Shown one piece after another: positions 11,527-58,446 of a stretch of DNA of 64,000 nt. The first letter of the stretch is position 1; each line of letters starts with the position of its first letter. Origin of the DNA: an uncultured Chitinophagales bacterium (GTDB taxonomy: Bacteria > Bacteroidota > Bacteroidia > Chitinophagales > JABDMM01). Under the pieces are notes generated by a model, which saw only the letters and a program-made list of their open reading frames with translations, ran no database searches and was not told where the DNA came from. The DNA is taken from the NCBI GenBank assembly GCA_963991145.1, contig CAXDOZ010000001.1, forward strand, positions 6,617-70,616, read 5' to 3'. Position numbers and translations under genes: made by a program.

Positions 11527-12381
11527 ATGGAAGCAGAAAAGATACAATCCTGGGATCGTGAAATCAAATCTACAAAGGGATTACTAGATATAAACCTGGG
11601 TGAAATTTGGAGGTATAGAGACCTTCTTTGGCTGTTTGTACGAAGAGACTTTGTCGCAATGTACAAGCAGACGATTCTGGGTCCGATCTGGTTTTTTATA
11701 CAACCGCTTTTAACCACCATTACATTCACAATAATATTCGGTCGTTTAGCTAAGATAAGCACTGACAGTATTCCGCCCTTAGCTTTCTATTTGGCAGGGG
11801 TCACTCTTTGGAACTACTTTGCCGATTGTATTGTAAAGACCTCAAACACATTTACTATAAATGCCAACATCTTCGGAAAGGTCTATTTCCCAAGAATGAT
11901 TGTCCCTTTATCAGTAGTGGTCTCCAATTTGTTAAAGCTAGGAGTCCAGCTAATTCTCTTTATCGCTGTATGGGGATATTATTACTCACAGGGAAGCATT
12001 AGCCCTACCTGGGCCCTTGTAATGCTTCCTTTTTTGATTTTGATTATGGCAGGACTGGGGCTGGGCTCGGGTATCCTGATTAGTTCGCTTACTACTAAGT
12101 ATAGGGATCTTCAGTTTTTGGTGCAATTTGGGGTTCAGCTTCTAATGTATGGATCACCAGTAGTTTTCCCTTATTCTGTTGCGAAAGGAACAAAGTTTGA
12201 AATTCTATTGCAGATCAATCCTGTGACTGGGGTGATTGAAGCATTTAGATATGCTACTCTGGGAACAGGAGAGCTAAGCATGTCATTATTGGCTTACAGT
12301 GTTGTGTTCATGATTATCCTACTCTTTGCAGGTGTTGTTTCCTTCAATAAAGTAGAGAAGAATTTCATGGATACTGTTTAA
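11527..12381 (+). CDS. wzm: ABC-2 type polysaccharide/O-antigen export permease (Wzm)
   Basis: 284 aa with 6 predicted TM segments. The N-terminal signature is 'EIWRYRDLLWLFVRRDFVAMYKQTILGPIWFFIQP'. The ATPase gene follows directly. Confidence 0.9.
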   Translation: MEAEKIQSWDREIKSTKGLLDINLGEIWRYRDLLWLFVRRDFVAMYKQTILGPIWFFIQPLLTTITFTIIFGRLAKISTDSIPPLAFYLAGVTLWNYFADCIVKTSNTFTINANIFGKVYFPRMIVPLSVVVSNLLKLGVQLILFIAVWGYYYSQGSISPTWALVMLPFLILIMAGLGLGSGILISSLTTKYRDLQFLVQFGVQLLMYGSPVVFPYSVAKGTKFEILLQINPVTGVIEAFRYATLGTGELSMSLLAYSVVFMIILLFAGVVSFNKVEKNFMDTV

Positions 12382-12397
12382 ATCGATCAAGCTTAAG

Positions 12398-13702
12398 ATG
12401 TCAGAAATTGCTTTAGATATAAAAAACCTGTCCAAACAGTATCGACTTGGATTAGTAGGCGTCAGAACTCTGAGTGATGACCTAAAGCGATTCTACTATA
12501 AGATCAGAGGAAAGGAAGATCCTTTCCGATTAGTTGGAGATGAAAATGATAGAACTTCAGTTGGGGGAGATTATGTTTGGGCCTTGCGCGACATAAATCT
12601 CAGTATTTCAAAAGGAGAAGTTGTTGGAATTATTGGAAGGAATGGTGCAGGGAAATCCACTCTTCTGAAGATCTTATCCCAGGTTACAGGACCTACCGAG
12701 GGCTCGATCAAGGTAAAAGGAAGAATATCGTCTCTTTTAGAAGTTGGTACGGGCTTTCATCCTGAACTTACCGGTAAGGAGAATGTCTATCTGAATGGAG
12801 CAATCCTTGGGATGGATAGAAAAGAGATTGCTGCGAAGTTTGATGCAATAGTTGATTTTGCAGGGATCAGGAAGTATATCGATACGCCAACTAAGCGATA
12901 TTCAAGCGGAATGAAAGTTAGACTTGGATTTGCTGTGGCTGCATTTCTCGAGCCAGACATCATGATCGTAGATGAGGTACTCGCTGTAGGTGATGCGGAG
13001 TTTCAAAGAAAAGCAATTGCGAAAATGAGAGAGATCAGCAAGCAAAAGGATCGCACTGTTCTTTTTGTAAGCCACAATATGAACTCGATCAGGAATCTTT
13101 GCAGCAGAGGAGTCCTGTTAGAAATGGGGCAGGTGAAACTTGATGGAGATGTAGATACAATTGTATCTCACTACTTATCTGCAAACTCCACTTCAGAGGA
13201 TAGATCTCAGATTCAACGAACTGGAATAGGTCAGATCAAGATCACAGGAATGAAAATTCTTGATGATCAGGAAAGAGAGATTGATCAATTAATCTCAGGG
13301 GATAAGATTTCTCTTCAATTTGCTTTTGAGAATAATGACCCAACTATCAATTCATCTGAGTTCATCTTTAGTCTGCAGATACGAGATGAGTTTGGTAGTC
13401 CAATCGCCTCCTATATTTCAGATGAGATGAAGATTTCATTCCAGGGCGAAAAGATCCCTCCTACCGGTATAATTGTAGTTGATATACCTAGTTTGATGCT
13501 AAGAGGTGGTAAGTATATCGTAAAAACCAGGATAAATCTCAAAGAAACCGGTTTCAAGCATATGCAGGATGAGATTAATAATCTTGGAGATCTAATTGTT
13601 TTACCTGGAGATCATTGGGATGTAGGCAAGGATAATCGAACTGGGCACCAGGCTCTGTTAGAAGGATCCATCTCAATCAAGGAGAATGCGGACTCTAATT
13701 GA
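12398..13702 (+). CDS. wzt: ABC polysaccharide export ATP-binding protein (Wzt) with a ~180-aa C-terminal extension (Wzt_C-like glycan-cap-binding domain)
   Basis: 434 aa with Walker A 'GRNGAGKST', ABC signature 'YSSGMKVRLGFA' and Walker B 'IMIVDEVLAVGD'. Residues ~255-434 (nt ~13160-13699) extend beyond the NBD, as in the Wzt proteins of ABC-dependent O-antigen systems. Confidence 0.9.
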   Translation: MSEIALDIKNLSKQYRLGLVGVRTLSDDLKRFYYKIRGKEDPFRLVGDENDRTSVGGDYVWALRDINLSISKGEVVGIIGRNGAGKSTLLKILSQVTGPTEGSIKVKGRISSLLEVGTGFHPELTGKENVYLNGAILGMDRKEIAAKFDAIVDFAGIRKYIDTPTKRYSSGMKVRLGFAVAAFLEPDIMIVDEVLAVGDAEFQRKAIAKMREISKQKDRTVLFVSHNMNSIRNLCSRGVLLEMGQVKLDGDVDTIVSHYLSANSTSEDRSQIQRTGIGQIKITGMKILDDQEREIDQLISGDKISLQFAFENNDPTINSSEFIFSLQIRDEFGSPIASYISDEMKISFQGEKIPPTGIIVVDIPSLMLRGGKYIVKTRINLKETGFKHMQDEINNLGDLIVLPGDHWDVGKDNRTGHQALLEGSISIKENADSN

Positions 13703-14498
13703 TAAATATCTGGTAGATCAAAAGAGGTCAATTCTTGAGGGGGTAAGATATACAGCCATTGTCTCCACAGGTCGCACGGGCACAAAGTTCCTGGGGAATT
13801 CATTCTCCCATATACCTTATGTTCTCAGCATTCACGAGCCTAAACCAGTTCTGAATGATGTTGGTAGAGATCTTACTGTGGGTAAATTAAATTCGGTTCA
13901 GGTCCAAAAGAGATTCTTAAATGGCCGACAACAAATTATAAAGGAAGCAAAAGGAAATAAGGTCAATCATATAATTGAATCGAATGGAGGCCTTACCTTT
14001 TTATTGGATGAACTGAATTCAATTATTCCTGACTTTAAGGTCATTCATATAATTAGAGATCCATTTGACATGATCTCATCTGGGGTTTCACGCATGGATA
14101 ATCAAAACGAGCAGCGATACTCAAAGGACTCCAATTGGTTATTCAAGACTCGGGATTATCCCAATGACCCTAATTTTCGCAACTGGAACTCTTTAGATAT
14201 CTATGAGCGCTTTGCATGGATATGGCAGTTTAAAAACCAGCACTTATCTGAATGGTGTGAGTCAAACGAGAATGGTATTTCAGTAAAGTTTGAAGAGATA
14301 TTTCATTCGGGATCTGCATGGTCACAGATTTTAAGTTTTCTAGACCTTGAATATTTCGATTTGTCGAATGAAAAGAAGTTTAAGAACTCAAATGAAGTTC
14401 AATTTGCTGATGATAGATCAACCTGGCCTTCTGCAAGGAAAGAGAAAGTTAGGGCCCTGATAGAGAGTCTCGCCAGGAAATTTGACTACAAGATCTGA
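13686..14498 (+). CDS. PAPS-dependent sulfotransferase (1 of 4; tandem paralogue A)
   Basis: 270 aa with a 5'-PSB-like P-loop 'IVSTGRTGTKFLGNSF', a 3'-PB-like 'VIHIIRDPFDMISS' and 'VKFEEIF'. The ATG overlaps the wzt 3' end by 17 nt. Confidence 0.8.
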   Translation: MRTLIDKYLVDQKRSILEGVRYTAIVSTGRTGTKFLGNSFSHIPYVLSIHEPKPVLNDVGRDLTVGKLNSVQVQKRFLNGRQQIIKEAKGNKVNHIIESNGGLTFLLDELNSIIPDFKVIHIIRDPFDMISSGVSRMDNQNEQRYSKDSNWLFKTRDYPNDPNFRNWNSLDIYERFAWIWQFKNQHLSEWCESNENGISVKFEEIFHSGSAWSQILSFLDLEYFDLSNEKKFKNSNEVQFADDRSTWPSARKEKVRALIESLARKFDYKI

Positions 14499-14499
14499 C

Positions 14500-15348
14500 A
14501 TGAAAGGACTGAAGTCAATTTTTAATTTGTTTAGTAATTCATCATCTGACTCATTTGATGATATTGACTATAAATGTATAGTTAGCTCGGGGAGAACCGG
14601 GACTCAGTTTTTTGGACAATTCTTTGATCATTTCTACGAGAACCTGATTTCTAGGCATGAACCTAGGCCTGACCTGTTCAACATTTTTATCGAGAAATAC
14701 AGGAATAAGGCTGGGACTGAAGAATTGGTGACCTTTCTCAGGAAGGATAGGCTTGCTTTAGTAAATGAGTGTAGGAAATCTCCTTCACAGGTTTTGATAG
14801 AAAGTAATCCTAATGCCAGTTTACTGATTCCGGAGCTTAAACTGACTTTCCCAAGTCATAAATTTTTGTGGATTGTTAGAGATCCAAAAACTTATTTGAA
14901 ATCAGCCTATTCTAAATCTCCTGATGGATCGGGGGAGATGATGTTTTATGGAGAGAATGATCATCGGGATAGGCTGAAACCATCAGATCTGACAGAGTCA
15001 GAAAACGTAGATTGGGATCGCTTTGACCGATTTCAAAAGATATGCTGGTATTGGAATGCGATTAATAAGATTCTATATTCCAACCTTAAGGATGATAACA
15101 ATTGCTTGATGCTTAGGTATGAGGACCTTTTTAGTAAAGAAGATAACTTGCATTACCTTTTGAAGGTTCTCGATTTTTTTGAACTAGATCATTCAGAAAT
15201 AGATCTGGACAGAGTTAATTCAAGAATGTTGGTGCCAAGCAATCAAACTAAATTCAGTATGATAAGATCATACGATGATTGGGATAAAAATAAAACAGAC
15301 TCATTTGAAGCCTTAACTTCTGAAATGAGAAGTATTTTAAACTATTAG
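14500..15348 (+). CDS. PAPS-dependent sulfotransferase (2 of 4; tandem paralogue B)
   Basis: Motifs 'IVSSGRTGTQFFGQFF', 'LWIVRDPKTYLKSAYS' and 'LRYEDLF'. It is colinear with the upstream paralogue ('HEPKP/HEPRP', 'IESNGG/IESNPN'). The ORF track starts at TTG 14482. I prefer ATG 14500, which lies 1 nt after the upstream stop. Confidence 0.8.
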   Translation: MKGLKSIFNLFSNSSSDSFDDIDYKCIVSSGRTGTQFFGQFFDHFYENLISRHEPRPDLFNIFIEKYRNKAGTEELVTFLRKDRLALVNECRKSPSQVLIESNPNASLLIPELKLTFPSHKFLWIVRDPKTYLKSAYSKSPDGSGEMMFYGENDHRDRLKPSDLTESENVDWDRFDRFQKICWYWNAINKILYSNLKDDNNCLMLRYEDLFSKEDNLHYLLKVLDFFELDHSEIDLDRVNSRMLVPSNQTKFSMIRSYDDWDKNKTDSFEALTSEMRSILNY

Positions 15349-15350
15349 AA

Positions 15351-16334
15351 ATGAAAGTTCTTGTTACCGGAGCAGATGGGTTTATTGGAAGCCATTTAGT
15401 TGAAGAATTATTAGATGCTGGATATGAGGTAAAAGCATTCGCATATTATAATTCATTTAATAGCTGGGGTTGGTTAGACACACTTCCGAAAGAGAAGTTG
15501 GACCAAATAGAAATTTTTACTGGAGATATAAGAGACCCAAATGGGGTTAAGACTGCAATGCAAGGAGTTGATCAGGTCTTCCACTTAGCTGCCCTGATTG
15601 CCATTCCATTCAGTTATCACAGTCCTGACAGTTATGTTGATACGAATGTGAAAGGGACACTCAATGTTCTTCAGGCAGGAAGAGATTTAGGACTTGATAG
15701 AATTTTGGTTACTTCTACATCTGAAGTTTATGGAACAGCACAGTTTGTTCCAATTACCGAAGAACACCCAAAACAGGGTCAATCGCCATATTCAGCAACT
15801 AAGATCGGAGCTGATGTATTGGCCGATTCCTTTTTCAGAAGTTTTGACCTGCCAATAACAATTGTTAGGCCCTTTAATACCTACGGTCCCCGACAATCTG
15901 CAAGAGCAGTTATCCCAACAATCATTTCACAACTCCTAAATGAAATGGATGAGATCAAGTTAGGAGACTTGACGCCTACTCGTGACCTTCTTTATGTAAA
16001 AGATACTGCGAGAGGTTTTATTGAGATCTCTAAATCAAATTCTTTGATCGGACAGGAGTGTAATATTGCTACAAACTCTGAGATCAGTATTGGAGATCTT
16101 GCACAGAATCTAATCGATCAAATCCGGCCTCAGGCGAAAATTATTCAAGACGAACAAAGGCTCAGGCCAGGTAAAAGTGAGGTTTTTAGGCTTTTTGGAA
16201 GTAATGCCAGGATCCTGGAGAATACTGATTGGAAGCCTGAATATGATTTGACAAAAGGATTAGCTGAAACAATAGAATGGTTCTCAAATTCAGAGAACTT
16301 GAAAGCCTACAAAGCTCATATCTACAATGTCTAA
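15351..16334 (+). CDS. NAD-dependent sugar-nucleotide 4,6-dehydratase/epimerase (SDR), LegB-like
   Basis: 327 aa with Rossmann motif 'VLVTGADGFIGSHL' and catalytic 'SPYSATKIGAD' (YxxxK). It resembles the dehydratase that pairs with a DegT aminotransferase in legionaminic-acid-type cassettes. Confidence 0.75.
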   Translation: MKVLVTGADGFIGSHLVEELLDAGYEVKAFAYYNSFNSWGWLDTLPKEKLDQIEIFTGDIRDPNGVKTAMQGVDQVFHLAALIAIPFSYHSPDSYVDTNVKGTLNVLQAGRDLGLDRILVTSTSEVYGTAQFVPITEEHPKQGQSPYSATKIGADVLADSFFRSFDLPITIVRPFNTYGPRQSARAVIPTIISQLLNEMDEIKLGDLTPTRDLLYVKDTARGFIEISKSNSLIGQECNIATNSEISIGDLAQNLIDQIRPQAKIIQDEQRLRPGKSEVFRLFGSNARILENTDWKPEYDLTKGLAETIEWFSNSENLKAYKAHIYNV

Positions 16335-17472
16335 TTCAGATGTAATAGAATTCATTAGGGAACTCTACAATGAACCAGATGGATTCATTCCTTTACATAT
16401 TCCACGATTTCGTGGGAGAGAGAAGGAGTATTTAATGAATTGCATTGATTCCACCTTTGTTTCAAGTGTGGGTGAGTATGTAAATCAATTTGAAGAAGAT
16501 ATTGCTTGCATTACAGGCGCCAGGTATGCCATTGCAGTTGTAAATGGCACAAATGCCTTACAGGTAGCCTTACGGCTGGCAGGTGTAAAAACAGAAGAAG
16601 AAGTTATAACACAGGCATTTAGCTTTGTCGCTACAGCCAATGCAATTTCCTATCTGGGAGCAAAACCAGTTTTTATTGATGTCGACAGGCAGCGAATGGG
16701 TATGTCGGCAGAAGCCCTAAGATCTTTTCTACAAGAGAGCACCGAGAGGAAAAATGGTCAGGTTTTTAATAAGAAGACAGGACGCCGAATTGCCGCTATA
16801 GTTCCTATGCACACCTTTGGCTTTGCTGCAGAGATTGACAGTTTAGTTTCTATTGCCAAGGAATGGGGTATTCCTTTAGTTGAAGATGCAGCGGAATCAC
16901 TTGGAACTACTTACAAGGGAAAACATACTGGAACTTTTGGTCTCTTTGGAACGATGAGTTTTAATGGGAATAAGATTGTTACTTGTGGTGGCGGTGGTGT
17001 AATAATTACCGATAGTGAAGAGCTTGCTAAAAAAGCCAAGCATCTTACAACTACTGCAAAGGTTCCTCACAAATGGGCATATGAGCATGATATGATGGGC
17101 TACAATTTTAGAATGCCCAATCTGAATGCAGCTTTGGCATGTGCTCAGCTTGAAATGCTTGATGAATTTTTAGCTAGCAAGAAGAAACAGGCAGATCAAT
17201 ATTCTAACTTTTTCTCTCAAACAGAGGATTACTCCTTTATCGGTGAGCAAGAGAATTCATCATCTAACTTCTGGTTGATGACGATTATTCTTTCTGATAA
17301 AACACACAGAGATAAGTTTCTCAAAGAAACCAATGAAGCAGGAGTAATGACGCGCCCAGCCTGGAATCTTCTCAACACTCTGGATATGTATAGAGACTGC
17401 CAATCTGATGATTTGCTAAATTCAAATTGGTTGTTCGAAAGGGTGGTGAATGTCCCAAGTTCTGTAGTTTAG
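16327..17472 (+). CDS. DegT/DnrJ/EryC1-family PLP aminotransferase (LegC/PglE-like sugar 4-aminotransferase)
   Basis: 381 aa with 'AIAVVNGTNALQVAL', 'VEDAAESLG' and the lysine region 'SFNGNKIVTCGGGGVIITD'. Overlaps the upstream gene by 8 nt. Confidence 0.85.
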   Translation: MSNSDVIEFIRELYNEPDGFIPLHIPRFRGREKEYLMNCIDSTFVSSVGEYVNQFEEDIACITGARYAIAVVNGTNALQVALRLAGVKTEEEVITQAFSFVATANAISYLGAKPVFIDVDRQRMGMSAEALRSFLQESTERKNGQVFNKKTGRRIAAIVPMHTFGFAAEIDSLVSIAKEWGIPLVEDAAESLGTTYKGKHTGTFGLFGTMSFNGNKIVTCGGGGVIITDSEELAKKAKHLTTTAKVPHKWAYEHDMMGYNFRMPNLNAALACAQLEMLDEFLASKKKQADQYSNFFSQTEDYSFIGEQENSSSNFWLMTIILSDKTHRDKFLKETNEAGVMTRPAWNLLNTLDMYRDCQSDDLLNSNWLFERVVNVPSSVV

Positions 17473-17475
17473 AGT

Positions 17476-18126
17476 ATGGCAAAAGATCTCTATATCATTG
17501 GTGCTGGCGGAATGGCAAAAGAAATCCTTCCTTTGGTAAATGATATAAACTACTCTGAGAACCTTTATAGATTAAAGGGATTTATTGATAAGTCTTCAGA
17601 ACTAAAGGAATTAAAAATTGGGGGTTCTAAGTTTCCTGTCTTAGAGGAGGATTTTTTTCTTGAAGAATTCAGGGGGTTTGATGTTGCATGTTGTCTAGGG
17701 ATTGGAGCAAGTCCTTATAACCCATCAATCATTAAGAGATTTGAAGATTTTGAGTTTCCTAATCTGGTCCATCCAAATGTAACTGGTGACCGAAAAAGTA
17801 TAAAGATTGGTAAAGGGAATCTGTTTTGCTCCAATTCTCAGTTTACAGTTAATTTATCAGGTGGCGATTTTAACATCTTTAATCGTGGCAGTCAGGTTGG
17901 CCATGATGTAGAAATTGGAAGTTTTAATCTATTTAATCCTGGCTCTATAGTTTCTGGATCGGTTTCAATTGGTGATTCAAATTTGATTGGGGCTGGATCG
18001 GTTATTCTCCAAAACTTAAAGATTAAGTCTAATTCTATTCTTGGAGCAGGAGCTGTTTTGACCAAAGATCTGGAATCAAATGTAATGGCTATGGGAGTTC
18101 CTGCAAAAGTTGTCAATAATCCTTGA
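17476..18126 (+). CDS. NeuD/PglD-family sugar N-acetyltransferase (left-handed beta-helix)
   Basis: 216 aa. The N-terminal 'LYIIGAGGMAKEILPLV' is followed by hexapeptide repeats ('IGSFNLFNPGSIVSGSVSIGDSNLIGAGSVIL'). Confidence 0.8.
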   Translation: MAKDLYIIGAGGMAKEILPLVNDINYSENLYRLKGFIDKSSELKELKIGGSKFPVLEEDFFLEEFRGFDVACCLGIGASPYNPSIIKRFEDFEFPNLVHPNVTGDRKSIKIGKGNLFCSNSQFTVNLSGGDFNIFNRGSQVGHDVEIGSFNLFNPGSIVSGSVSIGDSNLIGAGSVILQNLKIKSNSILGAGAVLTKDLESNVMAMGVPAKVVNNP

Positions 18127-18136
18127 AAAGATAAAA

Positions 18137-18805
18137 ATGAAAAATGTAGTTGTTGTGGCTGTCCATCCCGATGATGAGACTCTAGCTTGTGGAGGAACCT
18201 TATTGCGCCACAAGAATGAGGGAGATAAAGTCCATTGGATTATTGTAACAAATATTTCTGAAGATCAGGGCTTCTCTAAAGAGAAAGTAAAGTCAAGACA
18301 GGAGGAAATAAATCGAGTGGCAAGAGAATTTAATTTTGATTCAGTAGTGAAGTTTGATTTCCCAACAACTCAACTTGAAGAGTTTTCAAAGGGAAAGTTG
18401 ATTGCCTCTCTTTCAAAAGCCTTTCAGGATATTAAACCCAATGTAGTTTACCTTCCTTTCCCAGGGGACGCTCATAGCGAACACAAGTTTACATTTGAAT
18501 GTGCATTTGCATGTACGAAAACTTTTAGGTACCCATTTGTTGAGGAAGTGTATGCAATGGAAACTATAAGTGAAACGGAGTTTGGGCCCTCTTTTCAGAA
18601 CCAAGTATTTAACCCAAATTATTTTGTAGACGTAACAGAATATTTGCAAAGGAAGGTTGAGATCTTCTCAATTTTTGAATCTGAAATTGGAGAACATCCG
18701 TTCCCTCGTAGTAAAAGGAATCTTAAGGCTCAAGCCACTTTCAGAGGTGCTCAATCAGGTTTCGAATATGCTGAATCATTTATGTTGCTGAAACAAAGGA
18801 GATAA
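18137..18805 (+). CDS. PIG-L/LmbE-family N-acetyl-sugar deacetylase
   Basis: Signature 'VVVVAVHPDDETLACGGTLL' plus a later 'GDAHSEH'. The ORF track starts at TTG 18110. ATG 18137 places the HPDDE motif at the usual N-terminal position. Confidence 0.8.
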   Translation: MKNVVVVAVHPDDETLACGGTLLRHKNEGDKVHWIIVTNISEDQGFSKEKVKSRQEEINRVAREFNFDSVVKFDFPTTQLEEFSKGKLIASLSKAFQDIKPNVVYLPFPGDAHSEHKFTFECAFACTKTFRYPFVEEVYAMETISETEFGPSFQNQVFNPNYFVDVTEYLQRKVEIFSIFESEIGEHPFPRSKRNLKAQATFRGAQSGFEYAESFMLLKQRR

Positions 18806-23012: not shown

Positions 23013-23014
23013 AG

Positions 23015-23989: not shown

Positions 23990-24036
23990 TTTTTCGTCAA
24001 TTTAAATCATTGTGAGCCTAGCCGGAACCAATTATA

Positions 24037-24044
24037 TAAATTTG
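24037..24044 (+). promoter_or_regulatory. Candidate internal -7 box (TAAATTTG) in the 77-nt gap upstream of the GT2/7C-like gene
   Basis: An exact TAnnTTTG match lies 23 nt upstream of ATG 24067. The nearest upstream TTG (24010-24012) gives a 24-nt spacer, which is longer than typical. Confidence 0.3.
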
Positions 24045-24066
24045 GCTCCCGTTAAACGACTGAAGT

Positions 24067-26099: not shown

Positions 26100-26104
26100 C
26101 ACCT

Positions 26105-27014: not shown

Positions 27015-27022
27015 TATATTTG
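27015..27022 (+). promoter_or_regulatory. Candidate internal -7 box (TATATTTG) in the 76-nt gap upstream of gmd
   Basis: An exact TAnnTTTG match lies 26 nt upstream of ATG 27048. I found no convincing -33 TTG at the usual spacing. Confidence 0.3.
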
Positions 27023-28160: not shown

Positions 28161-28161
28161 A

Positions 28162-30125: not shown

Positions 30126-30126
30126 G

Positions 30127-31305: not shown

Positions 31306-31311
31306 GAAGTA

Positions 31312-35598: not shown

Positions 35599-35636
35599 GG
35601 GTCAATTTTTTCTAAGTTTGCACCAAATTTGAATTG

Positions 35637-39332: not shown

Positions 39333-39345
39333 ATATATTTGCAGG

Positions 39346-40440: not shown

Positions 40441-40522
40441 GCGAATTTATCCTCGCTATTTGCCTATCTTGCGTACCTTGAAATTTCAATGTTTATAAGC
40501 CTTTCGCAAGTCTAAAGCGCCT

Positions 40523-41656: not shown

Positions 41657-41657
41657 T

Positions 41658-42245: not shown

Positions 42246-42249
42246 AGAG

Positions 42250-43230: not shown

Positions 43231-43232
43231 AG

Positions 43233-48162: not shown

Positions 48163-48163
48163 C

Positions 48164-51567: not shown

Positions 51568-51656
51568 AGTCCAAATATCCTTAAATAAGCTTGTTCAAGG
51601 TGAATTAGATGCTCATTATTTAATTCCCCCAGACTATTGAAACTAGAAGGATTGCA

Positions 51657-51687: not shown

Positions 51688-51712
51688 ACCTCAAGTAAAT
51701 CAACCCCTGCTT

Positions 51713-52468
51713 TTGGACTCTCAGAATAATCAGGCGAAGGAATTCTTTAACGATATCGCCGATACCTACAAAGACAAGTACAAGAATTACAATAAGTTCC
51801 ACCATTACTTTTTCAATGAGAGGCTTAGAAAAGCATCTGAGGGATTCGATTTCCGAAATGCCACCATTCTGGATATTGGAACTGGTACCGGGGACCTTTA
51901 CGACCATCTTAAGTCAATAGATCTAAGCATAAATTTTTACGGCTCTGATATCGCTGAGAAGATGATTGCGGAAAGCAATATTCCAAAGGAAAATCAATTC
52001 GTGGGTAAGATCACTGAAATCGACCTGCCAAGGTCCGACTTTGATTATATCTATATGCTTGGGGTTACGACTTATCTTCCGGAGGATGAAATGGTTGAGA
52101 CATTGAAGACCATTGAGGCAAATCTTGCTCAGAATGGAAAGGCAATTTTGACTTTTACCAATTCAAACTCTTTCGACAATTTCAATCGAACTCTATTAAA
52201 GCTTCCAGTGAAACTGATGAAGTCAAAGAGGTCTGTTCTTGGTCAGGGGTTTAAGATCTATAAGTATAGTGTTTCGTCTGCAAAGGAGCTTGTAAATCCT
52301 TGGTTCAATGTGCAAGAGGTTAGGTATTTGAATCATACAGTTTTCCCCTGGAACCTGATTCTTAAGTCGGCAAGTGTTTCTTTGGCTAATCAGATAGATA
52401 AAATGGATGAGGGTCCTTTGCTTAGATCTTTATCTTCTGACTTTATGCTAGTCCTGTCTAAAAAGTAG
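51713..52468 (+). CDS. Class I SAM-dependent methyltransferase
   Basis: 251 aa with a TTG start; an in-frame stop lies at 51686-51688. SAM motif I 'ILDIGTGTGDL', then 'YIYMLGVTTYLPEDE' and 'NGKAILTFTN'. Confidence 0.8.
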   Translation: MDSQNNQAKEFFNDIADTYKDKYKNYNKFHHYFFNERLRKASEGFDFRNATILDIGTGTGDLYDHLKSIDLSINFYGSDIAEKMIAESNIPKENQFVGKITEIDLPRSDFDYIYMLGVTTYLPEDEMVETLKTIEANLAQNGKAILTFTNSNSFDNFNRTLLKLPVKLMKSKRSVLGQGFKIYKYSVSSAKELVNPWFNVQEVRYLNHTVFPWNLILKSASVSLANQIDKMDEGPLLRSLSSDFMLVLSKK

Positions 52469-52470
52469 AA

Positions 52471-53640
52471 ATGCCCAGAGTTCTAAGAATCATAAATCGA
52501 TTAAATCTGGGTGGACCTACATTCAATGCTTCCTATCTCAGTCGTTACCTACCGGATCAGTATGAGACGCTCTTGGTTGCCGGGATGAAAGATGCCACAG
52601 AAGCCAGCTCTGATTTTATTCCCTTAAGCATGGGCCTGGAACCGCATTATGTAAAGCATATGCACCGGGAGATTAATCCTTTGAAAGACAGGAAGGCGTA
52701 TAAGGAAATGAAGGGGATCATCAAGGACTTTAGGCCTGACATTGTTCATACCCACGCCGCAAAAGCTGGAGCATTAGGAAGGTTAGCAGCTGCAAATTGC
52801 AAAGTTCCGGTAATCGTACACACATTCCATGGTCATGTGTTTCATTCCTATTTCAATCCAGTCAAGACAAGGGCATTTGTGAAGATTGAGCAATATCTGG
52901 CCTCGAAAAGCTCCAAAATCATAGCTATTTCAAATAAGCAGAAGAAAGAGATCGGAGAGGATTTCGGAGTTGCGCCCTTAGATAAGATCGAAGTTATTCC
53001 CCTCGGTTTTGACCTTAGTCGCTTTCAGGAGAATATTGATCTGAAGAGAAAGAAATTCAGAGAGGAATGGGGAATTGAGGATGAAGAGGTTGCAATTGGG
53101 ATCATTGGAAGGCTCGTTCCAATAAAGAACCACCAGTTCTTTCTGGAAGCAATTCAAAGCTTGAGTGAAAAGACCAATATCCCATTTAAGGCATTCATCA
53201 TTGGAGATGGAGAAGATAGAGCTGTCATAGAGAACAAGGCTCGTGAACTGGGATTGATTGATTCAGAGAAGATAATTTTCACCTCCTGGATAAAGGATGT
53301 TGATGAAGCAAATGCCGGGATGGATATTATTGCTTTGACAAGTTTTAATGAGGGCACCCCTGTTTCATTGATTGAAGCACAAGCAGCCAATAAGCCTATT
53401 GTATCGACAAATGTTGGTGGGATTCAGGATATAATACTTGAAAATGATACTGGCTTTCTTAGCGAGCTAAACGAACAAGAAAAATTCGTTTCGGATCTTC
53501 AAAAATTGGTTGAAGATGCCGACCTGAGGAAAAGAATGGGGCAACAGGGATTTGACCATGTAAAAGAGAAGTTTAGCTACCAAAGATTGGTCAATGATAT
53601 GGATAGACTTTATACAAAGCTTCTTAAGGGAGATACTTAA
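52471..53640 (+). CDS. GT4-family glycosyltransferase
   Basis: 389 aa with 'RVLRIINRLNLGGPTFNA', 'IVHTHAAKAGALGR', 'IGRLVPIKNHQFFLEA' and 'SFNEGTPVSLIEAQAANKPIVSTNVGG'. Confidence 0.88.
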   Translation: MPRVLRIINRLNLGGPTFNASYLSRYLPDQYETLLVAGMKDATEASSDFIPLSMGLEPHYVKHMHREINPLKDRKAYKEMKGIIKDFRPDIVHTHAAKAGALGRLAAANCKVPVIVHTFHGHVFHSYFNPVKTRAFVKIEQYLASKSSKIIAISNKQKKEIGEDFGVAPLDKIEVIPLGFDLSRFQENIDLKRKKFREEWGIEDEEVAIGIIGRLVPIKNHQFFLEAIQSLSEKTNIPFKAFIIGDGEDRAVIENKARELGLIDSEKIIFTSWIKDVDEANAGMDIIALTSFNEGTPVSLIEAQAANKPIVSTNVGGIQDIILENDTGFLSELNEQEKFVSDLQKLVEDADLRKRMGQQGFDHVKEKFSYQRLVNDMDRLYTKLLKGDT

Positions 53641-53666
53641 GAGGTGTTAGGTCTAATTTATTAGTT

Positions 53667-54461
53667 TTGTCAAACATCAAAAGAGTGCAATTGAAGTCTT
53701 ATCACATCCGCTATTTTCTACTTCTGGTAGGACTTGCCTTTTTCCTTAATTCATGTAAACTTTTCTATCCTAACAGGATGTTCAAGCAGAAGGATTACCA
53801 ATCTTTCGCTTTAGACCAACCACCTCCTGATGAATATATCATTCAACCAGGAGATGAGCTTTCTTTGAGAGTTTTCTCAAGATCAGGATTTGATCTTGTA
53901 GATGTAGTTGGGAGGTCCAATCAGGGAGGAGCAATGAGACAGGGCAATAATCAATCCTTAGGATTTCCATATTATGTTGATGTCGATGGTTATGTAGATC
54001 TTCCATTACTAGGAATGTACTATGTGGAGGGCTTTACTCAGGCTCAATTGGAAGAGCAACTGGAATCAGAATTCTCTTCTCAATTCAATGATCCTTTTGT
54101 TATGCTCAGGGTCTCAAACAGAAGGGCTTTTGTTTATTTGGGATCAAGTGCAAAAGTGGTCAGGCTAAATAACGCCCCGACCAATCTACTTGAGGTGATT
54201 GCATCTGCAGGAGGATTGGGTAGGGATCTTAAGGCATATAAGATCAAAATCATCAGAGGGGATCTAAGCAATCCTCAGATTATTAAGGTAGACCTTTCAA
54301 CAATTGCAGGTCTAAGAGATGCAGATTTACTTATACAAACAAATGATGTGGTCTATGTAGAGGAGAGATATAAGGTTGTCTCTACTCTTCTAAAAGAACT
54401 TACTCCACTTATCGGACTACTTACTCTTACACTTACCACTATTGCACTTATAAAGAACTAG
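53667..54461 (+). CDS. wza: Outer-membrane polysaccharide export lipoprotein (Wza/OPX family)
   Basis: 264 aa with lipoprotein signal 'LLLVGLAFFLNSC', Poly_export motif 'YIIQPGDELSLRVF' and an SLBB-like 'IKIIRGD...VVYV'. The start is TTG 53667 (alternative GTG 53685). Confidence 0.85.
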   Translation: MSNIKRVQLKSYHIRYFLLLVGLAFFLNSCKLFYPNRMFKQKDYQSFALDQPPPDEYIIQPGDELSLRVFSRSGFDLVDVVGRSNQGGAMRQGNNQSLGFPYYVDVDGYVDLPLLGMYYVEGFTQAQLEEQLESEFSSQFNDPFVMLRVSNRRAFVYLGSSAKVVRLNNAPTNLLEVIASAGGLGRDLKAYKIKIIRGDLSNPQIIKVDLSTIAGLRDADLLIQTNDVVYVEERYKVVSTLLKELTPLIGLLTLTLTTIALIKN

Positions 54462-54473
54462 AGACTTAGGAAC

Positions 54474-56954
54474 GTGAGTCAACCCCAAACAGATAATAAT
54501 ACTCAACAGGAAACCAAGGAAGAAGTAAGATCCACGGTTGTCCAGGATTTCAATCTCGGACTATTAATCTTTGTCTTTAAGGAGAACTGGATCTGGTTGG
54601 TTGTTCTAATTGCTGTCTCTTTTTCTTTTGCTCATATCTATCTGAGATACACACCAGATACCTATCAATCTTCTGCAGAAATAATGCTTACTACCAAGGC
54701 TGAACAGCAGATTCTTGGGGTTGGAGACATTCTGGCAGATAATCAGTTGGAGATAAATAGAGAGATGCAATTGATCAAGTCATCTCTAATTCTTTCAAGG
54801 CTTATAGATAAGCTTCCTTTGAGTGTTTCCTATTTCTCTCAAGGGAGATCAAAGTTTGTTACAACTGACCTCTATAGAAAGTCTCCAGTCACTGTCATTC
54901 CAGGAGATATTGCAAATCCGGCTTTTTCAATTCCAATTACTGTTGAGATTCTTAATGATAAAGAGTATTTGCTGAGTTATGAATTGAATAATGATAATAT
55001 CGGTCTTACCAAAGAATTTGGTGACCAGTATTCTACTCCTCATTTCACAGTAACTATTGTAAAGGAGGAAGATTTTTTTGATGAGTATAATGGCCAATCA
55101 ATTTTCTTCAAGTTTAACTCCGATGACCAGATCGTGAATGATCTATCTAAGAGAATTGAAGTCACACCCATAAACAAGGTGACCAGGTCATTTAACATTT
55201 TATATACAGATCAAACTCCTCAAAAAGCACTTGATATTACAGCAGAACTTACTGAAGAGTTTATCCTTTATGACAAGGAGACCAAGGCTCAAAATATTGA
55301 CCAAATCTTAGGATTCTTAAATATTCAAATTGACACCTTCTCCAAAGGTTATAATATCTATCAGGATTCTATCACAGATTTTCAGACCAGACTGGGGTAT
55401 ATGGGTCCTGATCAAAGGATGAGCAATCTAGTAAGTGATATGAGATCACTTGAAGGAGGGATTACAAAACTTGAGTTGGAGAAAAGTATGCTAAACTGGT
55501 TGTTAAATTATACCAGAACAACAACAGACCTTCAACCGGTAATGGTTTTTGATGAAGCCAATGTCTTTAATAATTTTTCAAAGCAGGTATCTGAGATAAA
55601 CAGACTTGAAACTGAGATTGCCACTCTTAAACTCGACGTTTCTAACAATTACCCAGAGTTAAAGCTGTCAGAGGACCTGCTTTCAAAAGCGAGGCAGAAC
55701 CTGGAGTTGTCTATTGAGAATGCCTTGATAGCCAATGATTCATCAAAAAATCAGGCTCTCTCAAATCTTCAGGAGATCATGCAGAATCTCAACGTGATGC
55801 CTGAAGAACAAAAAGATTATAGCCGAATAGATCGGCAAAAGGGATTTCAGGAAGAGTTCTATGTTGACCTGATCGGGAAAAGAACTAGCTATCAAATTGC
55901 CAAAGCGGGAATTGTAGAGGATTATGTAATTCTTACTAATCCCAAATTACCGAGATCACCAATTGCCCCAAACAAGTTCCTTATTAGATTAGCCAGTATA
56001 GGTGTCGGGATTTTTCTTGGGATTCTATTGATTGCTATTAGATACCTACTTCACCAAAGTATTATCTCAGTACAGGATATTGCGAATAGAACATCCGCCG
56101 CAATCCTCGGTATCATCCCGCGACATAAAGAGAAGCTGGAAAGATCAGCGATCGTAGTTACTCAGAATCCAAAGTCTACGATCTCTGAGTCATTTAGATC
56201 GATCAGAACTAACCTTAAGTTCTTATCAAGTGATGATGGAACTAAAGTGCTTACAGTTACCTCTACTATTCCTGGTGAAGGGAAAACATTCGTTGCGCTA
56301 AATCTAGGGGCTATCTTAAGCCTTTTGCAGAAAAAAGTGATAATGATCGATTGCGATCTTAGAAAGCCTCGTTTGGATAAGATCTTTAAGATCGATTCAC
56401 ATAAAGGAGTTTCTACGATTCTTAGCGGTCAAAGTGATTGGAAGGATTGCATCTATGAAAGTGGAGAAGAGTTTCTGGATTTCATTCCTTCAGGACCTGT
56501 TCCACCAAACCCTTCAGAGCTTATCATGAGGCCAGAGATGCAGCAAATGGTTGATGAGCTGAAGGAGCACTACGATTATATAATAATTGATACACCTCCT
56601 GTTGGTCTTGTTACCGATGCTATCGATTTGATGCACAAAGCCGACATTCCTATCTACATAACACGTGCTGATTATTCCCAGAGATCATTCGTTGAGAATA
56701 TCAATAAGATCATTTATGATAATGATGTAAAGAATATCTCTGTAGTTCTGAATGACTTTGGATCAGGAGCCTCAGGATATGCCTACGGTTATGGTTATAG
56801 CTATGGTTACGGTTACGGTTACGGTTATGGCTATGGCTACGGATATGGTTACGGCTACGGATATGGCGGCTACGGATATGGCCAGGGTTACTATAGTGAT
56901 GATGATGAAGTGAGACCGGGATTCTTTAAACGATTATTCCGACGAAAGAAGTAG
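54474..56954 (+). CDS. wzc: Polysaccharide co-polymerase / BY-kinase (Wzc, PCP-2a) with an extended Tyr/Gly C-terminal tail
   Basis: 826 aa with a GTG start and two TM segments flanking a long coiled-coil periplasmic domain. Walker A is 'STIPGEGKTFVALNLG', Walker A' is 'VIMIDCDLRKPRL' and Walker B is 'YDYIIIDTPPVG'. The C-terminal tyrosine cluster follows. Confidence 0.92.
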   Translation: MSQPQTDNNTQQETKEEVRSTVVQDFNLGLLIFVFKENWIWLVVLIAVSFSFAHIYLRYTPDTYQSSAEIMLTTKAEQQILGVGDILADNQLEINREMQLIKSSLILSRLIDKLPLSVSYFSQGRSKFVTTDLYRKSPVTVIPGDIANPAFSIPITVEILNDKEYLLSYELNNDNIGLTKEFGDQYSTPHFTVTIVKEEDFFDEYNGQSIFFKFNSDDQIVNDLSKRIEVTPINKVTRSFNILYTDQTPQKALDITAELTEEFILYDKETKAQNIDQILGFLNIQIDTFSKGYNIYQDSITDFQTRLGYMGPDQRMSNLVSDMRSLEGGITKLELEKSMLNWLLNYTRTTTDLQPVMVFDEANVFNNFSKQVSEINRLETEIATLKLDVSNNYPELKLSEDLLSKARQNLELSIENALIANDSSKNQALSNLQEIMQNLNVMPEEQKDYSRIDRQKGFQEEFYVDLIGKRTSYQIAKAGIVEDYVILTNPKLPRSPIAPNKFLIRLASIGVGIFLGILLIAIRYLLHQSIISVQDIANRTSAAILGIIPRHKEKLERSAIVVTQNPKSTISESFRSIRTNLKFLSSDDGTKVLTVTSTIPGEGKTFVALNLGAILSLLQKKVIMIDCDLRKPRLDKIFKIDSHKGVSTILSGQSDWKDCIYESGEEFLDFIPSGPVPPNPSELIMRPEMQQMVDELKEHYDYIIIDTPPVGLVTDAIDLMHKADIPIYITRADYSQRSFVENINKIIYDNDVKNISVVLNDFGSGASGYAYGYGYSYGYGYGYGYGYGYGYGYGYGYGGYGYGQGYYSDDDEVRPGFFKRLFRRKK
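56778..56894 (+). repeat. Imperfect hexanucleotide (TAY-GGN)n repeat encoding the (YG)n tail of Wzc
   Basis: The 39 codons 'YAYGYGYSYGYGYGYGYGYGYGYGYGYGGYGYGQGYY' contain 19 Tyr. The codons alternate tat/tac and ggt/ggc/gga. Confidence 0.95.
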
Positions 56955-56956
56955 TC

Positions 56957-58072
56957 ATGCTTGCCCTCTCAGATTATCTATACCCCTTTTACACCGTAGT
57001 ACTGTTGATGTCAGTGCTCTTTTCGGTTTTGATTAATCGATTGATGCTGAAGTTCTCCACTAATCTGGGTGTTAGAAATAAGGATAATATACAACAGGTG
57101 AGATGGTCATCAACCTCAAAACCCGCTCTAGGAGGAATCTCCTTTTTTATCATTTTTCTTATTTCAATCAGCCTTTTAGGAGCTATCCCAACAGAGAATT
57201 CAGACGTTTTTGATCAAAGGGTACTTGGTATTGTAACAGCCTGTATTCTTGGATTCCTTTTGGGTCTGGCAGACGATGCATATAACACTAATCCTCTTGT
57301 GAAATTTATTGGTCAGCTTACCTGTGCATTCATTTTGATCACAACAGGAGTGTCAATTGAATTAACAGGTATCGCCTCTGTGGACTTCATTTTTACAACG
57401 GTTTGGGTTATTGGGCTAATGAACTCGATAAACATGTTGGACAACATGGATGCCATTACCACCACAACATCCATTTTCATCATTCTTGGAGCCATAGTTA
57501 TTCTTGCTGTTTCAGGTCAGTATAACAGCATGTATATGGTTCTGCTGTTAGGAGTACTTGGTGCCTTGATCGGCTTTCTATTCTTCAACTGGAACCCATC
57601 AAGCATGTATATGGGTGATACCGGAAGTCAGTTTCTGGGAGTATATCTGGCAGCTATTTCCATTATTTTCATGTGGAATGGCTTTAAACTGCAGAATGCG
57701 GAAATACTTCAGGTAAAGCAATTCGTTATTCCTGCTTTGCTATTCATTGTTCCTTTAATCGACACAACGACAGTTACCTTTAGAAGACTAATGAGGAAAC
57801 AATCCCCATTCGTAGGAGGCAAGGATCATATAACTCATCAATTAGCAATTCTTGGTCTTTCTGATCGTGGGGTGGCAATAGCTTTAAGTTCCGTTTCTGC
57901 TTTTTCAGTTGTAATAGTAGGATTGCTGGTAAGCGGAACTATAGAGTGGACCTATCAGGTCACATTTGCCTGTGTAATTTATTTCTTCGCCATGCTTGCT
58001 TTCATGCAAGTATTATACAATCGAGCTCAGGCAAAGCTCAAAGCCCGGGAAGCTGATAATCAGGGATCGTGA
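56957..58072 (+). CDS. Polyprenyl-phosphate HexNAc-1-phosphate transferase (WecA/MraY family, initiating transferase)
   Basis: 371 aa with ~10-11 TM segments. Motifs: 'GLADDAYNTNP' (DDxxN), 'LMNSINMLDNMDAI' (a variant of NxxDGxDGL that keeps both Asp) and 'MGDTGSQFLG'. Confidence 0.85.
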   Translation: MLALSDYLYPFYTVVLLMSVLFSVLINRLMLKFSTNLGVRNKDNIQQVRWSSTSKPALGGISFFIIFLISISLLGAIPTENSDVFDQRVLGIVTACILGFLLGLADDAYNTNPLVKFIGQLTCAFILITTGVSIELTGIASVDFIFTTVWVIGLMNSINMLDNMDAITTTTSIFIILGAIVILAVSGQYNSMYMVLLLGVLGALIGFLFFNWNPSSMYMGDTGSQFLGVYLAAISIIFMWNGFKLQNAEILQVKQFVIPALLFIVPLIDTTTVTFRRLMRKQSPFVGGKDHITHQLAILGLSDRGVAIALSSVSAFSVVIVGLLVSGTIEWTYQVTFACVIYFFAMLAFMQVLYNRAQAKLKAREADNQGS

Positions 58073-58446
58073 ATTTATTAGCAGTCTTTATTGGAGGTGG
58101 ATTAGGTAGCGTTTGTCGATACCTTCTTACCATTGCATATCCACTTCAGCCAAATAGCTTCCCCTTTGCAACATTCTTTGCAAACCTGATCAGCTGTTTT
58201 GTTCTAGGCATAGCATTTTACTTCTTCCTAAATAAAGCTGAGGTAAATGAGCCTTTTAAATTGCTTTTAACGGTAGGATTCTGTGGCGGTTTTTCCACCT
58301 TTTCAACCTTCAGTCTGGAGAACCTTCAATTGTATGAGAATGGCAATTATCAAATGCTCATTCTGAATATTGTTCTAAGTATTCTATTAGGAGTAGCCTT
58401 ATGCTGGCTGGGAGTTAAAACAGGAAAGCTTGCTTTTGGCGCTTAG
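58069..58446 (+). CDS. crcB: Fluoride ion channel CrcB/Fluc
   Basis: 125 aa with 'FIGGGLGSVCRY' and 'GFCGGFSTFSTFS'. The GTG start overlaps the upstream stop (GTGA). Confidence 0.92.
   Translation: MNLLAVFIGGGLGSVCRYLLTIAYPLQPNSFPFATFFANLISCFVLGIAFYFFLNKAEVNEPFKLLLTVGFCGGFSTFSTFSLENLQLYENGNYQMLILNIVLSILLGVALCWLGVKTGKLAFGA

Follow-up and report, generated by a model that had tools for sequence, protein, structure and literature searches.

A Chitinophagales surface-glycan locus with Wzm/Wzt genes at one end and Wza/Wzc genes at the other

Layout of the locus

We analyzed a stretch of 64,000 nucleotides (the window) from an uncultured Chitinophagales bacterium (GenBank assembly GCA_963991145.1, contig CAXDOZ010000001.1, positions 6,617 to 70,616); coordinates below count from its first letter. 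It holds a large surface-glycan locus of 47 kb, whose genes we number g1, g2 and so on, with an ABC exporter pair (Wzm/Wzt) at the 5′ end and Wza, Wzc and a PNPT-family initiating transferase at the 3′ end. A first-pass annotation, made from the letters alone, had marked this region at 11527-58446 and had seen in it either two juxtaposed glycan systems, with a boundary near 49.3-51.7 kb, or a hybrid export route. Our open reading frame (ORF) map reproduced the layout it described: 37 consecutive plus-strand genes run from 11527 to 50254, a single gene, g38, lies on the minus strand at 50251-51567, and the plus orientation resumes from 51713 to 58446. The places of the largest gaps in the 37-gene run also agreed (77, 76, 82 and 72 nt in our gap table). 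Overlapping junctions are indeed frequent, but the 14 counted earlier become 20 with longest-ORF starts, or 16 once four starts are moved to a downstream ATG or GTG. Since the last gene encodes a CrcB fluoride channel, we place the end of the glycan locus at 58072 rather than 58446. The genes on which the argument turns are the following.

g1, 11527-12381, plus strand: Wzm, ABC-2 permease (PF01061, ABC2_membrane, 2e-14)
g2, 12398-13702, plus strand: Wzt, ABC ATPase (PF00005, ABC_tran, and PF14524, Wzt_C)
g38, 50251-51567, minus strand: polytopic GT-C-like membrane protein (AlphaFold2 [AF2] fold comparison; Pfam matches of family members)
g41, 53667-54461, plus strand: Wza, short outer membrane polysaccharide export (OPX) lipoprotein (PF02563, Poly_export, and SLBB_2; start possibly ATG 53691)
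g42, 54474-56954, plus strand: Wzc, tyrosine autokinase of polysaccharide copolymerase class 2a (PCP-2a) (Wzz, GNVR and AAA_31; TIGR01007 162.6 bits, cutoff 108)
g43, 56957-58072, plus strand: PNPT-family (WecA/WbpL-like) initiating transferase (PF00953, 1.7e-25; 10 predicted transmembrane segments)
crcB, 58069-58446, plus strand: non-glycan gene for a fluoride channel; shares 4 nt with the end of the PNPT gene

According to the hydropathy table, the polytopic proteins of the locus are Wzm, a 181-amino-acid (aa) exosortase-family protein (g26), g38, the initiator and CrcB. A crcB gene also follows the PNPT gene in four related loci (L006, L012, L013 and L019; L numbers designate fetched loci). 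An Rfam scan of the window returned neither a fluoride riboswitch nor any other match. The exact proteins of the window are also present on freshwater-type metagenome scaffolds.

Export machinery and initiator

The ABC pair is of the O-antigen type by family scores, with Wzm/RfbD, Wzt/RfbE and TagH as its best NCBIfam matches; g1 itself scores 64.9 bits against Wzm/RfbD and 36.7 against KpsM. It is 47-56% identical to Flavobacteriia-type Wzm proteins, and the closest non-self homologs of g2 are 50-56% identical, the named ones being mostly from Flavobacteriales. At its C terminus (residues 273-401), g2 carries a Wzt_C carbohydrate-binding domain (34.3 bits, cutoff 30.4).

At the other end of the locus, Wza is a protein of 264 aa that has a lipobox at Cys30 and a single SLBB domain and ends in a hydrophobic helix; Pfam reports no GfcC-type domain in it. 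Wzc has Walker A, A′ and B motifs (PGEGKT, VIMIDCDLR and YIIIDTPP) and a (YG)n tail, and by these motifs it looks catalytically intact. The tail (56800-56900, residues ~765-808) stands out for the length of its (YG)n repeat: the final 40 residues hold at least 10 tyrosines, and an acidic stretch and then a basic one come after the repeat. The earlier description of g43 as a WecA-like initiator at the 3′ end holds as far as the PNPT family goes; its match to the WecA equivalog model falls far short of the cutoff (TIGR02380, 65 versus 326 bits).

We then asked what is missing. Among window ORFs of at least 100 aa, no MOP/Polysacc_synt (Wzx) family match was obtained at E≤0.01 with Pfam and NCBIfam, which bears out the first-pass annotation on this point. 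The 64-kb window likewise gave no match to a Wzy_C/RfaL-type protein (Wzy or WaaL) and, in Pfam, none to the LMW-PTP or PHP families of Wzb/CpsB phosphatases. Pfam reported no KpsS/KpsC-type family for the locus proteins, and PCP-3 (KpsE) was not matched, the PCP of the locus being the kinase-bearing PCP-2a. The PNPT-family g43 is the sole initiator and Wzm/Wzt the sole transporter for lipid-linked glycans in the window.

g38, a GT-C-like protein of a large family

No gene of the locus is as widely conserved as g38, on the minus strand. Its product had no match in Pfam or NCBIfam even at E=10, and its profile found only chance matches among PDB sequences. The family is nevertheless very large. 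Homologs gave 2492 matches among 8000 candidates scored, some of them from proteins named "Chitinophagales bacterium"; a genome scan with the g38 alignment matched at least 598 genome stretches; and, among 1.84 billion cluster representatives, a profile search returned 6795 clusters (50% identity) at E≤1e-3 and 2108 at E≤1e-30.

An AF2 model built from 40 sequences (pLDDT 86.9) had DPY19, ALG12 and ArnT as its top Foldseek matches in the PDB, with probabilities of 0.94-0.95, weak E values (0.3-0.9) and template modeling (TM) scores of 0.38-0.45. Four of the 40 family members match DUF2142 and one matches PMT_2, both of which we take to be GT-C-type families. A Gly-Asp pair, G61-D62, is invariant in the 40 sequences and sits in a loop of 55 residues, acidic in character, that follows the second hydrophobic segment; the membrane side of this loop is a prediction. 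Taken together, the model and the family matches suggest a GT-C-like membrane glycosyltransferase of a large uncharacterized family.

We considered other identities for g38. Wzx was rejected: a MATE-family structure scored a probability of 0.02, and there is no MOP Pfam match. A canonical WaaL or Wzy was judged unlikely, with no Wzy_C match and no WaaL among the best 50 of 71 Foldseek matches; RodA matched with a probability of 0.08. Cytophaga hutchinsonii, which belongs to the Cytophagales, has a WaaL with a recognizable RfaL domain (PMC12860637), and a separate WaaL in this species further argues against that role for g38. Identity among g38 proteins, the only Wzy candidate of the locus, is 35-47% across orders, unlike that of the serotype-specific Wzy, and a divergent polymerase role is improbable.

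A conserved block with a variable region upstream

To survey synteny, we ran tblastn with all window proteins against 80 genome loci and inspected the neighborhoods of g38 homologs on annotated contigs. A scan of genome contigs with Wzc alone had yielded no relatives, whereas the scan with the g38 alignment did. In a relative with 72% identity (L013), g29 to g44 occur in the exact order of the window, and the g29-g33 order is partly kept in two others (L007 and L023). At the level of gene order, the core reads AsnB-GT4-(methyltransferase)-GT1, then g38 convergent with that GT1, then (methyltransferase or AsnB)-GT4-Wza-Wzc-WecA-(CrcB)-RidA-aldehyde dehydrogenase. This core order recurs in Chitinophagales loci L006/L014, L008, L015, L019, L027, L029, L032, L051, L056, L062 and L064. 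The g36-type GT1 is the constant partner of g38, convergent with it in 54 of the 80 loci; a g40-type GT4 accompanies it in 32/80, AsnB in 30/80 and a g34-type GT4 in 23/80, the g40 homologs that adjoin g38 being 52-62% identical to that of the window.

On this conservation of order, g38 belongs to a vertically inherited block of ~38-58 kb. The boundary of 49.3-51.7 kb suggested earlier for a juxtaposition does not stand: both sides of it, together with g38, form one block whose order is kept in L013 and at least 10 other Chitinophagales loci. Synteny rules out a seam there, and any seam lies upstream.

Upstream, the picture changes. Most of g3-g26 had no match in 170 fetched loci, the exceptions being weak paralog-level matches for members of the short-chain dehydrogenase/reductase (SDR), aminotransferase and glycosyltransferase families, and single matches for g11 and g26. 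The G+C content is 0.36-0.40 at 13.7-26 kb (13700-26000), compared with 0.42-0.45 for the core block and values of 0.40-0.43 for the flanks. The near lack of counterparts and the drop in G+C therefore put a mosaic edge upstream of ~38 kb, and the drop is consistent with horizontal replacement of the variable region. Its ends showed no tRNA, significant repeat, Rfam family or mobile-element gene that could mark a mobile-element boundary. Small genes of the 23S_rRNA_IVP family (PF05635) lie inside two of the polysaccharide loci compared (L007, 19327-19683, and L094, 9596-9958), in the latter, from Marixanthomonas, between wzm and wzt.

The ABC and Wza/Wzc genes are often linked

If the two halves of the export machinery belong together, they may be expected to be linked elsewhere. 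We took the loci with a Wzm at least 47% identical to that of the window and looked for a Wzc within 10 kb on the same strand. A metagenome scan with the Wzt alignment picked up generic ABC motifs and many non-Bacteroidota loci, and only its Wzm ≥47% subset entered the tally. A full-length Wzc, kinase domain included, lay near Wzm/Wzt in 8 of the 15 loci, or 8 of the 13 with enough upstream sequence; where annotated, Wza stood beside these closest Wzm/Wzt relatives as well. In a Nonlabens locus (L095), wza (276 aa), wzc (818 aa), wzm and wzt, the last with a Wzt_C domain, are contiguous on one strand and open the locus; the genes upstream are housekeeping genes on the opposite strand, and an MBOAT protein is the only other polytopic protein in 21 kb. 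Marixanthomonas (L094) has wza-wzc, a 0.9-kb gap and wzm-wzt. In a Flavobacterium sp. (L009), an opposite-strand CpsB gene and then one small gene come between wza-wzc and wzm-wzt. Four metagenome loci (L098, L102, L106 and L107) carry a full-length Wzc (match residues ~25-770) just upstream of Wzm, and in L100 Wzc lies downstream of Wzm/Wzt and is followed by a homolog of g26.

We scanned nine of these loci, the eight Wzc-linked ones and L010, for polytopic ORFs and found no MOP protein; these ORFs were an acyltransferase, TatC, MBOAT or had no family match. The wza-wzc-wzm-wzt loci examined contained no Wzy candidate either. A second line of evidence comes from g38 and its partner GT1 (g36). 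In 12 Cytophagales loci and L011, Wzm/Wzt is the direct neighbor of this pair; in 11 Chitinophagales loci, the neighbor is GT4-Wza-Wzc-WecA. Both export halves are therefore tied to the same conserved pair. The hybrid export route raised by the first-pass annotation thus gains comparative support from the 8/15 linkage and the contiguous wza-wzc-wzm-wzt genes, a support that speaks of gene neighborhoods and only through them of function.

Four further metagenome contigs of G+C 0.54-0.60, presumably not Bacteroidota (L132, L148, L154 and L157), have a kinase-domain Wzc-like PCP upstream of Wzm/Wzt and within a few kilobases of it; in L148 and L157 it is the immediate upstream neighbor. Linkage of Wzc with Wzm/Wzt may extend beyond Bacteroidota.

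Biosynthesis and decoration genes

Between the export genes lie the genes for sugar synthesis, transfer and decoration, all on the plus strand.

g3, 13686-14498, plus strand: sulfotransferase-like (Sulfotransfer_3/_1, just below the Pfam cutoff)
g4, 14482-15348, plus strand: sulfotransferase-like (Sulfotransfer_3/_1)
g5-g10, 15351-20774, plus strand: LegB, LegC, NeuD/PglD-type acetyltransferase, PIG-L deacetylase, formyltransferase, nucleotidyltransferase
g11-g15, 20762-26099, plus strand: probable GT-B glycosyltransferase, GT2, soluble protein with no assigned family, GT2, weak glycosyltransferase-like protein (Pfam)
g16, 26045-26971, plus strand: sulfotransferase (Sulfotransfer_3, 2e-15; PRSGS motif; start probably GTG 26105)
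g17-g19, 27048-30125, plus strand: Gmd, Fcl-like protein and a third SDR, GDP-6-deoxyhexose pathway (TIGR01472 588 bits, cutoff 415)
g20 and g21, 30091-32418, plus strand: GT1-family glycosyltransferases (Pfam)
g22, 32406-33365, plus strand: sulfotransferase (Sulfotransfer_3, 4.6e-20; PRTGST motif)
g23 and g24, 33383-35598, plus strand: FemAB/VimA-like acyltransferase and VimE-like deacetylase (TIGR03019, 1.5e-7, and NF053580, 5.9e-21, both far below cutoff)
g25, 35634-37484, plus strand: carbamoyltransferase, NodU/CmcH type (PF02543, PF16861)
g26, 37484-38029, plus strand: small exosortase-family membrane protein, 181 aa (TIGR04178 signature 58.4 bits, cutoff 23)
g27-g33, 38040-46027, plus strand: GT1-like, WecB 2-epimerase, DegT aminotransferase, hexapeptide acetyltransferase, GFO oxidoreductase, AsnB-type amidotransferase, GalE/TviC-like epimerase
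g34-g36, 46011-49252, plus strand: GT4, methyltransferase, GT1 (Pfam)
g37, 49325-50254, plus strand: RmlD-like reductase (PF04321, 5.9e-52; TIGR01214 183 bits, below the cutoff of 224)
g39 and g40, 51713-53640, plus strand: methyltransferase, GT4 (Pfam)

Pfam and NCBIfam supported the four sulfotransferases, two methyltransferases and one carbamoyltransferase of the earlier reading, one of the sulfotransferases scoring just below the Pfam cutoff. The tally of about 11 glycosyltransferases fared less well. We count 10 of the Leloir type, nine by Pfam and the tenth, g11, by homology to a glycosyltransferase-like protein (25% identity over 292 aa to a Nonlabens post-Wzt protein that has weak GT56/GT1 matches); a total of about 11 is reached only when the GT-C-like g38 and the initiator are added. 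Among the ten, g20 is a paralog of g36 (24% identical).

A P-loop-like motif for 3′-phosphoadenosine-5′-phosphosulfate (PAPS) is present in all four sulfotransferase-like proteins. In g3 and g4, which are 26% identical to each other, it takes the form GRTGT and is accompanied by RDP motifs. Four such genes with PAPS-loop motifs imply, at the level of sequence, a probably sulfated glycan. The window holds no genes for PAPS synthesis. A Winogradskyella Wzm/Wzt locus (L010) also contains a sulfotransferase.

The sugar pathways can be assigned by type. The g5-g10 set, with TIGR04180 at 496 bits (cutoff 475), TIGR04181 at 545 bits (cutoff 420) and other Pfam and NCBIfam matches, would represent a 2,4-diamino-2,4,6-trideoxyhexose-type pathway; since no NeuB/NeuA-type genes lie beside it, its end product is probably not a nonulosonic acid. 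In the GDP-6-deoxyhexose set, the Fcl match of g18 (275 bits) is under its cutoff. The g27-g33 genes point to a route of the Wbp type whose product would be a 2,3-diacetamido uronic acid or its amide; a WbpA-type dehydrogenase was not found, which leaves that nucleotide-sugar pathway without its first enzyme. The RmlD-like g37 is kept in the close relatives L012 and L013.

For g26, the closest model is XrtX (107 bits versus a cutoff of 170), and a CSG motif lies at residue 93. The gene directly follows the carbamoyltransferase gene, and a 33% identical homolog directly follows Wzc in L100 (16287-16790), a metagenome Wzm/Wzt locus.

Flanking genes

Housekeeping genes flank the locus. To its left lie mreC, mreB, purH, purN, a gene for a WecE-type aminotransferase and a gene for a PKD protein of 1885 aa that carries a type IX secretion tail; to the right lie ridA and genes for an aldehyde dehydrogenase, DUF1295, BaxI, mscS and tsf. 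The WecE-type gene (4716-5852, plus strand), to the left of the region first marked, encodes a dTDP-4-amino-4,6-dideoxygalactose transaminase (423 bits, cutoff 375). It is separated from the locus by the 5.7-kb PKD gene, with which it has an 11-nt convergent overlap, and in the past the glycan region may have reached beyond its present left end.

The PKD protein, with its Por_Secre_tail domain (5842-11499, minus strand), is encoded immediately upstream of wzm. The core locus of L008 borders on PorP/SprF and type IX secretion system cargo genes. The FemAB/VimA-like and VimE-like pair (33383-35598), the Wbp-type genes and AsnB (39346-45080) recall what we take to be the set for the linking sugar of A-type lipopolysaccharide in Porphyromonas, to which type IX cargo is attached; with all family scores far below equivalog cutoffs, this likeness is a lead only.

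Candidate promoters

We searched the plus strand for TAnnTTTG, which we take to be the Bacteroidota -7 promoter consensus. Intergenic matches lie at 24037, 27015, 35613, 39334, 51680 and 53662, ahead of g14, g17, g25, g28, g39 and wza. Six of the 20 plus-strand matches thus fall within 637 nt of intergenic DNA, where 0.19 would be expected (Poisson P ~6e-8). The step in G+C coincides with the site at 27015. A sigma-70 promoter scan showed no enrichment and no intrinsic terminator was found in the plus-strand gaps, both scans being uninformative for Bacteroidota.

One export route or two glycans

We favor, with a probability of roughly 50%, the view that the locus is one modular ABC-dependent surface-glycan system in which Wzm/Wzt passes its polymer to Wzc/Wza. 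The hand-over, like every biochemical step below, is what we infer from observed gene content, conservation and gene neighborhoods. The PNPT-family g43 would prime undecaprenyl phosphate. The GT4/GT1 enzymes g34, g36 and g40, with the Wbp-type sugar genes, would add a conserved reducing-end segment, and the variable g3-g26 would build a strain-specific polymer in the cytoplasm and decorate it with sulfate, carbamoyl, N-formyl/N-acetyl and methyl groups. Wzt_C may recognize a terminal modification, after which Wzm/Wzt would export the finished chain. In the periplasm, the GT-C-like g38 could modify or transfer the chain, which the short Wza and a Wzc octamer would then carry to the surface. We favor a functional link of the two export halves because of the 8/15 linkage, the shared g38/GT1 pair and the presence of one initiator and one transporter for lipid-linked glycans. 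We also count for it the co-oriented genes with their 16-20 overlapping junctions, the lack of MOP and Wzy_C matches in the window, with only five membrane proteins in the locus, the lack of MOP matches in the Wzc-linked loci and the apparently intact catalytic motifs of Wzc.

Several observations weigh against this reading. Gene adjacency is not coupling. Some Chitinophagales core loci, L008 among them, show AsnB-GT4-GT1-g38-AsnB-GT4-Wza-Wzc-WecA but lack Wzm/Wzt within 10 kb; a core with no ABC transporter linked to it is thus possible. Conversely, no Wzc lies within 10 kb of g38-GT1-Wzm-Wzt in the Cytophagales loci, which look like a plain O-antigen system. In no fetched locus other than the window do g38, Wzm/Wzt and Wzc occur together within 10 kb. 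About ten glycosyltransferases and four to five sugar pathways are a lot for one polymer, and the six promoter-like boxes and the step in G+C speak for several transcription units and for a mosaic origin. Finally, E. coli and Klebsiella offer a precedent in which a Wzy-type cps locus abuts an ABC-type rfb locus.

The strongest alternative, which we regard as possible though on the unlikely side, is that two glycans are encoded side by side. Wzm/Wzt and most of the biosynthetic genes would then make an ABC-dependent, WecA-primed polymer of the O-antigen type, ligated to lipid A-core by a WaaL encoded elsewhere; Wza/Wzc, anchored at wecA-crcB-ridA, would serve a Wzx/Wzy-dependent capsule or exopolysaccharide (EPS) with wzx, wzy and some glycosyltransferases elsewhere; and WecA would be shared. 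The proximity of wza-wzc to wzm-wzt would, just as tentatively, reflect clustering of surface-glycan genes. The separate occurrence of the halves in Chitinophagales (Wza/Wzc/WecA in L008 and others) and Cytophagales fits this arrangement, as do the candidate internal promoters ahead of g39 and wza. In the Flavobacterium locus L009, wza-wzc follows a PglC-like initiator, DegT and CapD, and the opposite-strand CpsB gene precedes wzm-wzt, as if two loci could abut there. From the literature come the assignment of PCP-2a to Wzy-dependent systems in a review (PMC12220298), the canonical RfaL-domain WaaL of C. hutchinsonii (PMC12860637) and the surface-polysaccharide cluster of Flavobacterium johnsoniae, which spans 76.5 kb and several transcripts (PMC10936215). 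Against two glycans stands the lack of any MOP or Wzy_C protein in the 64-kb window, in the annotated core loci L006-L008 or in the wza-wzc-wzm-wzt loci examined. The contiguous Nonlabens genes, which open their locus after opposite-strand housekeeping genes, and the presence of a single initiator in the window argue the same way.

In Lactococcus lactis, the polytopic GT-C protein WpsJ is proposed to attach a separately assembled side chain to an RgpC/RgpD-associated rhamnan backbone, and rgp/cwps loci hold DUF2142 and GT-C polytopic proteins beside the RgpC/RgpD transporters (PMC9746298). By analogy, a conserved and a variable glycan might be made separately and joined on the periplasmic face by g38, whose GT-C-like fold matches, DUF2142/PMT_2 family matches, wide conservation and position between the Wbp/GT4 and Wza/Wzc genes would suit such a role; we consider this improbable, given a conserved block without a second flipping system (Wzx, GtrA-like or ArnE/F-like) or a GT2 polyprenyl-phosphate sugar synthase, and fold matches that are statistically weak.

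If the single-system reading is taken to its full extent, the locus could represent a fourth, undescribed and perhaps common Bacteroidota scheme of assembly and export, a proposal we advance with considerable reserve. Wzm/Wzt, with its cap-reading module, would deliver a fully polymerized glycan linked to undecaprenyl pyrophosphate to Wzc/Wza; the phosphorylation cycle would gate export rather than Wzy polymerization; the g38 family would supply a periplasmic transferase; and the product would be sulfated, carbamoylated and possibly an anchor for type IX secretion cargo.

Comparison with known systems

A recent review pairs PCP-3 with ABC systems and PCP-2a, the BY-kinase class, with Wzy systems (PMC12220298). 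The rule stated in the first-pass annotation, that a BY-kinase goes with Wzx/Wzy and that Wzm/Wzt systems use none, agrees with the review and is at odds with the Bacteroidota gene neighborhoods described here. A survey of OPX proteins found PCP and OPX proteins in both pathway types (bioRxiv 2022.02.11.480155), and in Synechocystis, cross-talk between KpsM and Wzc/Wza was hypothesized from mutants of separately named genes (PMC7885315). The full-text literature searched, outside which most subscription journals lie, yielded no account of wza-wzc-wzm-wzt as a cassette or of BY-kinases with Wzm/Wzt; as evidence of novelty this is weak. If functional, the wza-wzc-wzm-wzt linkage in Bacteroidota would break the pairing of the review, and what tyrosine phosphorylation regulates where there is no periplasmic polymerase would become a testable question. 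If the genes are mere neighbors, the locus is an ordinary large polysaccharide region, like the documented 76.5-kb cluster of F. johnsoniae (PMC10936215). The protein g38 represents a very large uncharacterized membrane family in surface-glycan loci across Chitinophagales and Cytophagales. A passage of the synechan paper (PMC8205485) describes sulfated extracellular polysaccharides as, among bacteria, unique to cyanobacteria; the locus is a candidate for such a pathway outside that group.

Among the closest known systems is the E. coli O8/O9a-type system (WecA, WbdA-D, Wzm/Wzt). Shared with it are the ABC-2 permease, the Wzt_C-bearing ATPase, a PNPT-family initiator, GT4 transferases that possibly make an adaptor, methyltransferases and other candidate cappers, and, within the window, the lack of Wzx/Wzy. 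The locus differs in containing a PCP-2a kinase, an OPX protein and a conserved GT-C-like membrane protein; no WaaL was recognized in the window and no WbdD-like terminator was identified.

The E. coli group 2 capsule (KpsMT, with KpsE as PCP-3 and KpsD as OPX) also combines an ABC exporter with a PCP and an OPX protein, and it places conserved export genes around a variable middle (regions 1 and 3 flanking region 2). However, the transporter here scores as Wzm/Wzt rather than KpsMT and has Wzt_C, the PCP is a kinase-bearing PCP-2a rather than PCP-3, and the OPX protein is short (264 aa). In addition, Pfam finds no KpsS/KpsC-type family, and initiation is probably through the PNPT enzyme on undecaprenyl phosphate. 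With the Wzx/Wzy-dependent group 1 capsule and colanic acid systems (Wza-Wzb-Wzc), the locus shares a Wza-family lipoprotein and a Wzc with Walker motifs and a tyrosine cluster, but the window has no Wzx, Wzy or Wzb/CpsB, and its Wza has one SLBB domain rather than two.

The rhamnose cell-wall loci of Lactococcus and Streptococcus resemble it in having an ABC exporter beside a polytopic, DUF2142-type GT-C-like protein; these loci are Gram-positive, lack OPX and PCP proteins and include a separate Wzx-like flippase that serves the side chain (PMC9746298). The EPS loci of PEP-CTERM/exosortase systems (Haft's XrtA) bring together an exosortase-family protein, a FemAB-like protein, an AsnB-type amidotransferase and a Wzc-type kinase, as does this locus, although all XrtA-system models score below cutoff here and the exosortase is a minimal form of 181 aa. 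Every part of the locus comes from a known family, and it is their combination that appears to be recurrent and, in the literature searched, undescribed.

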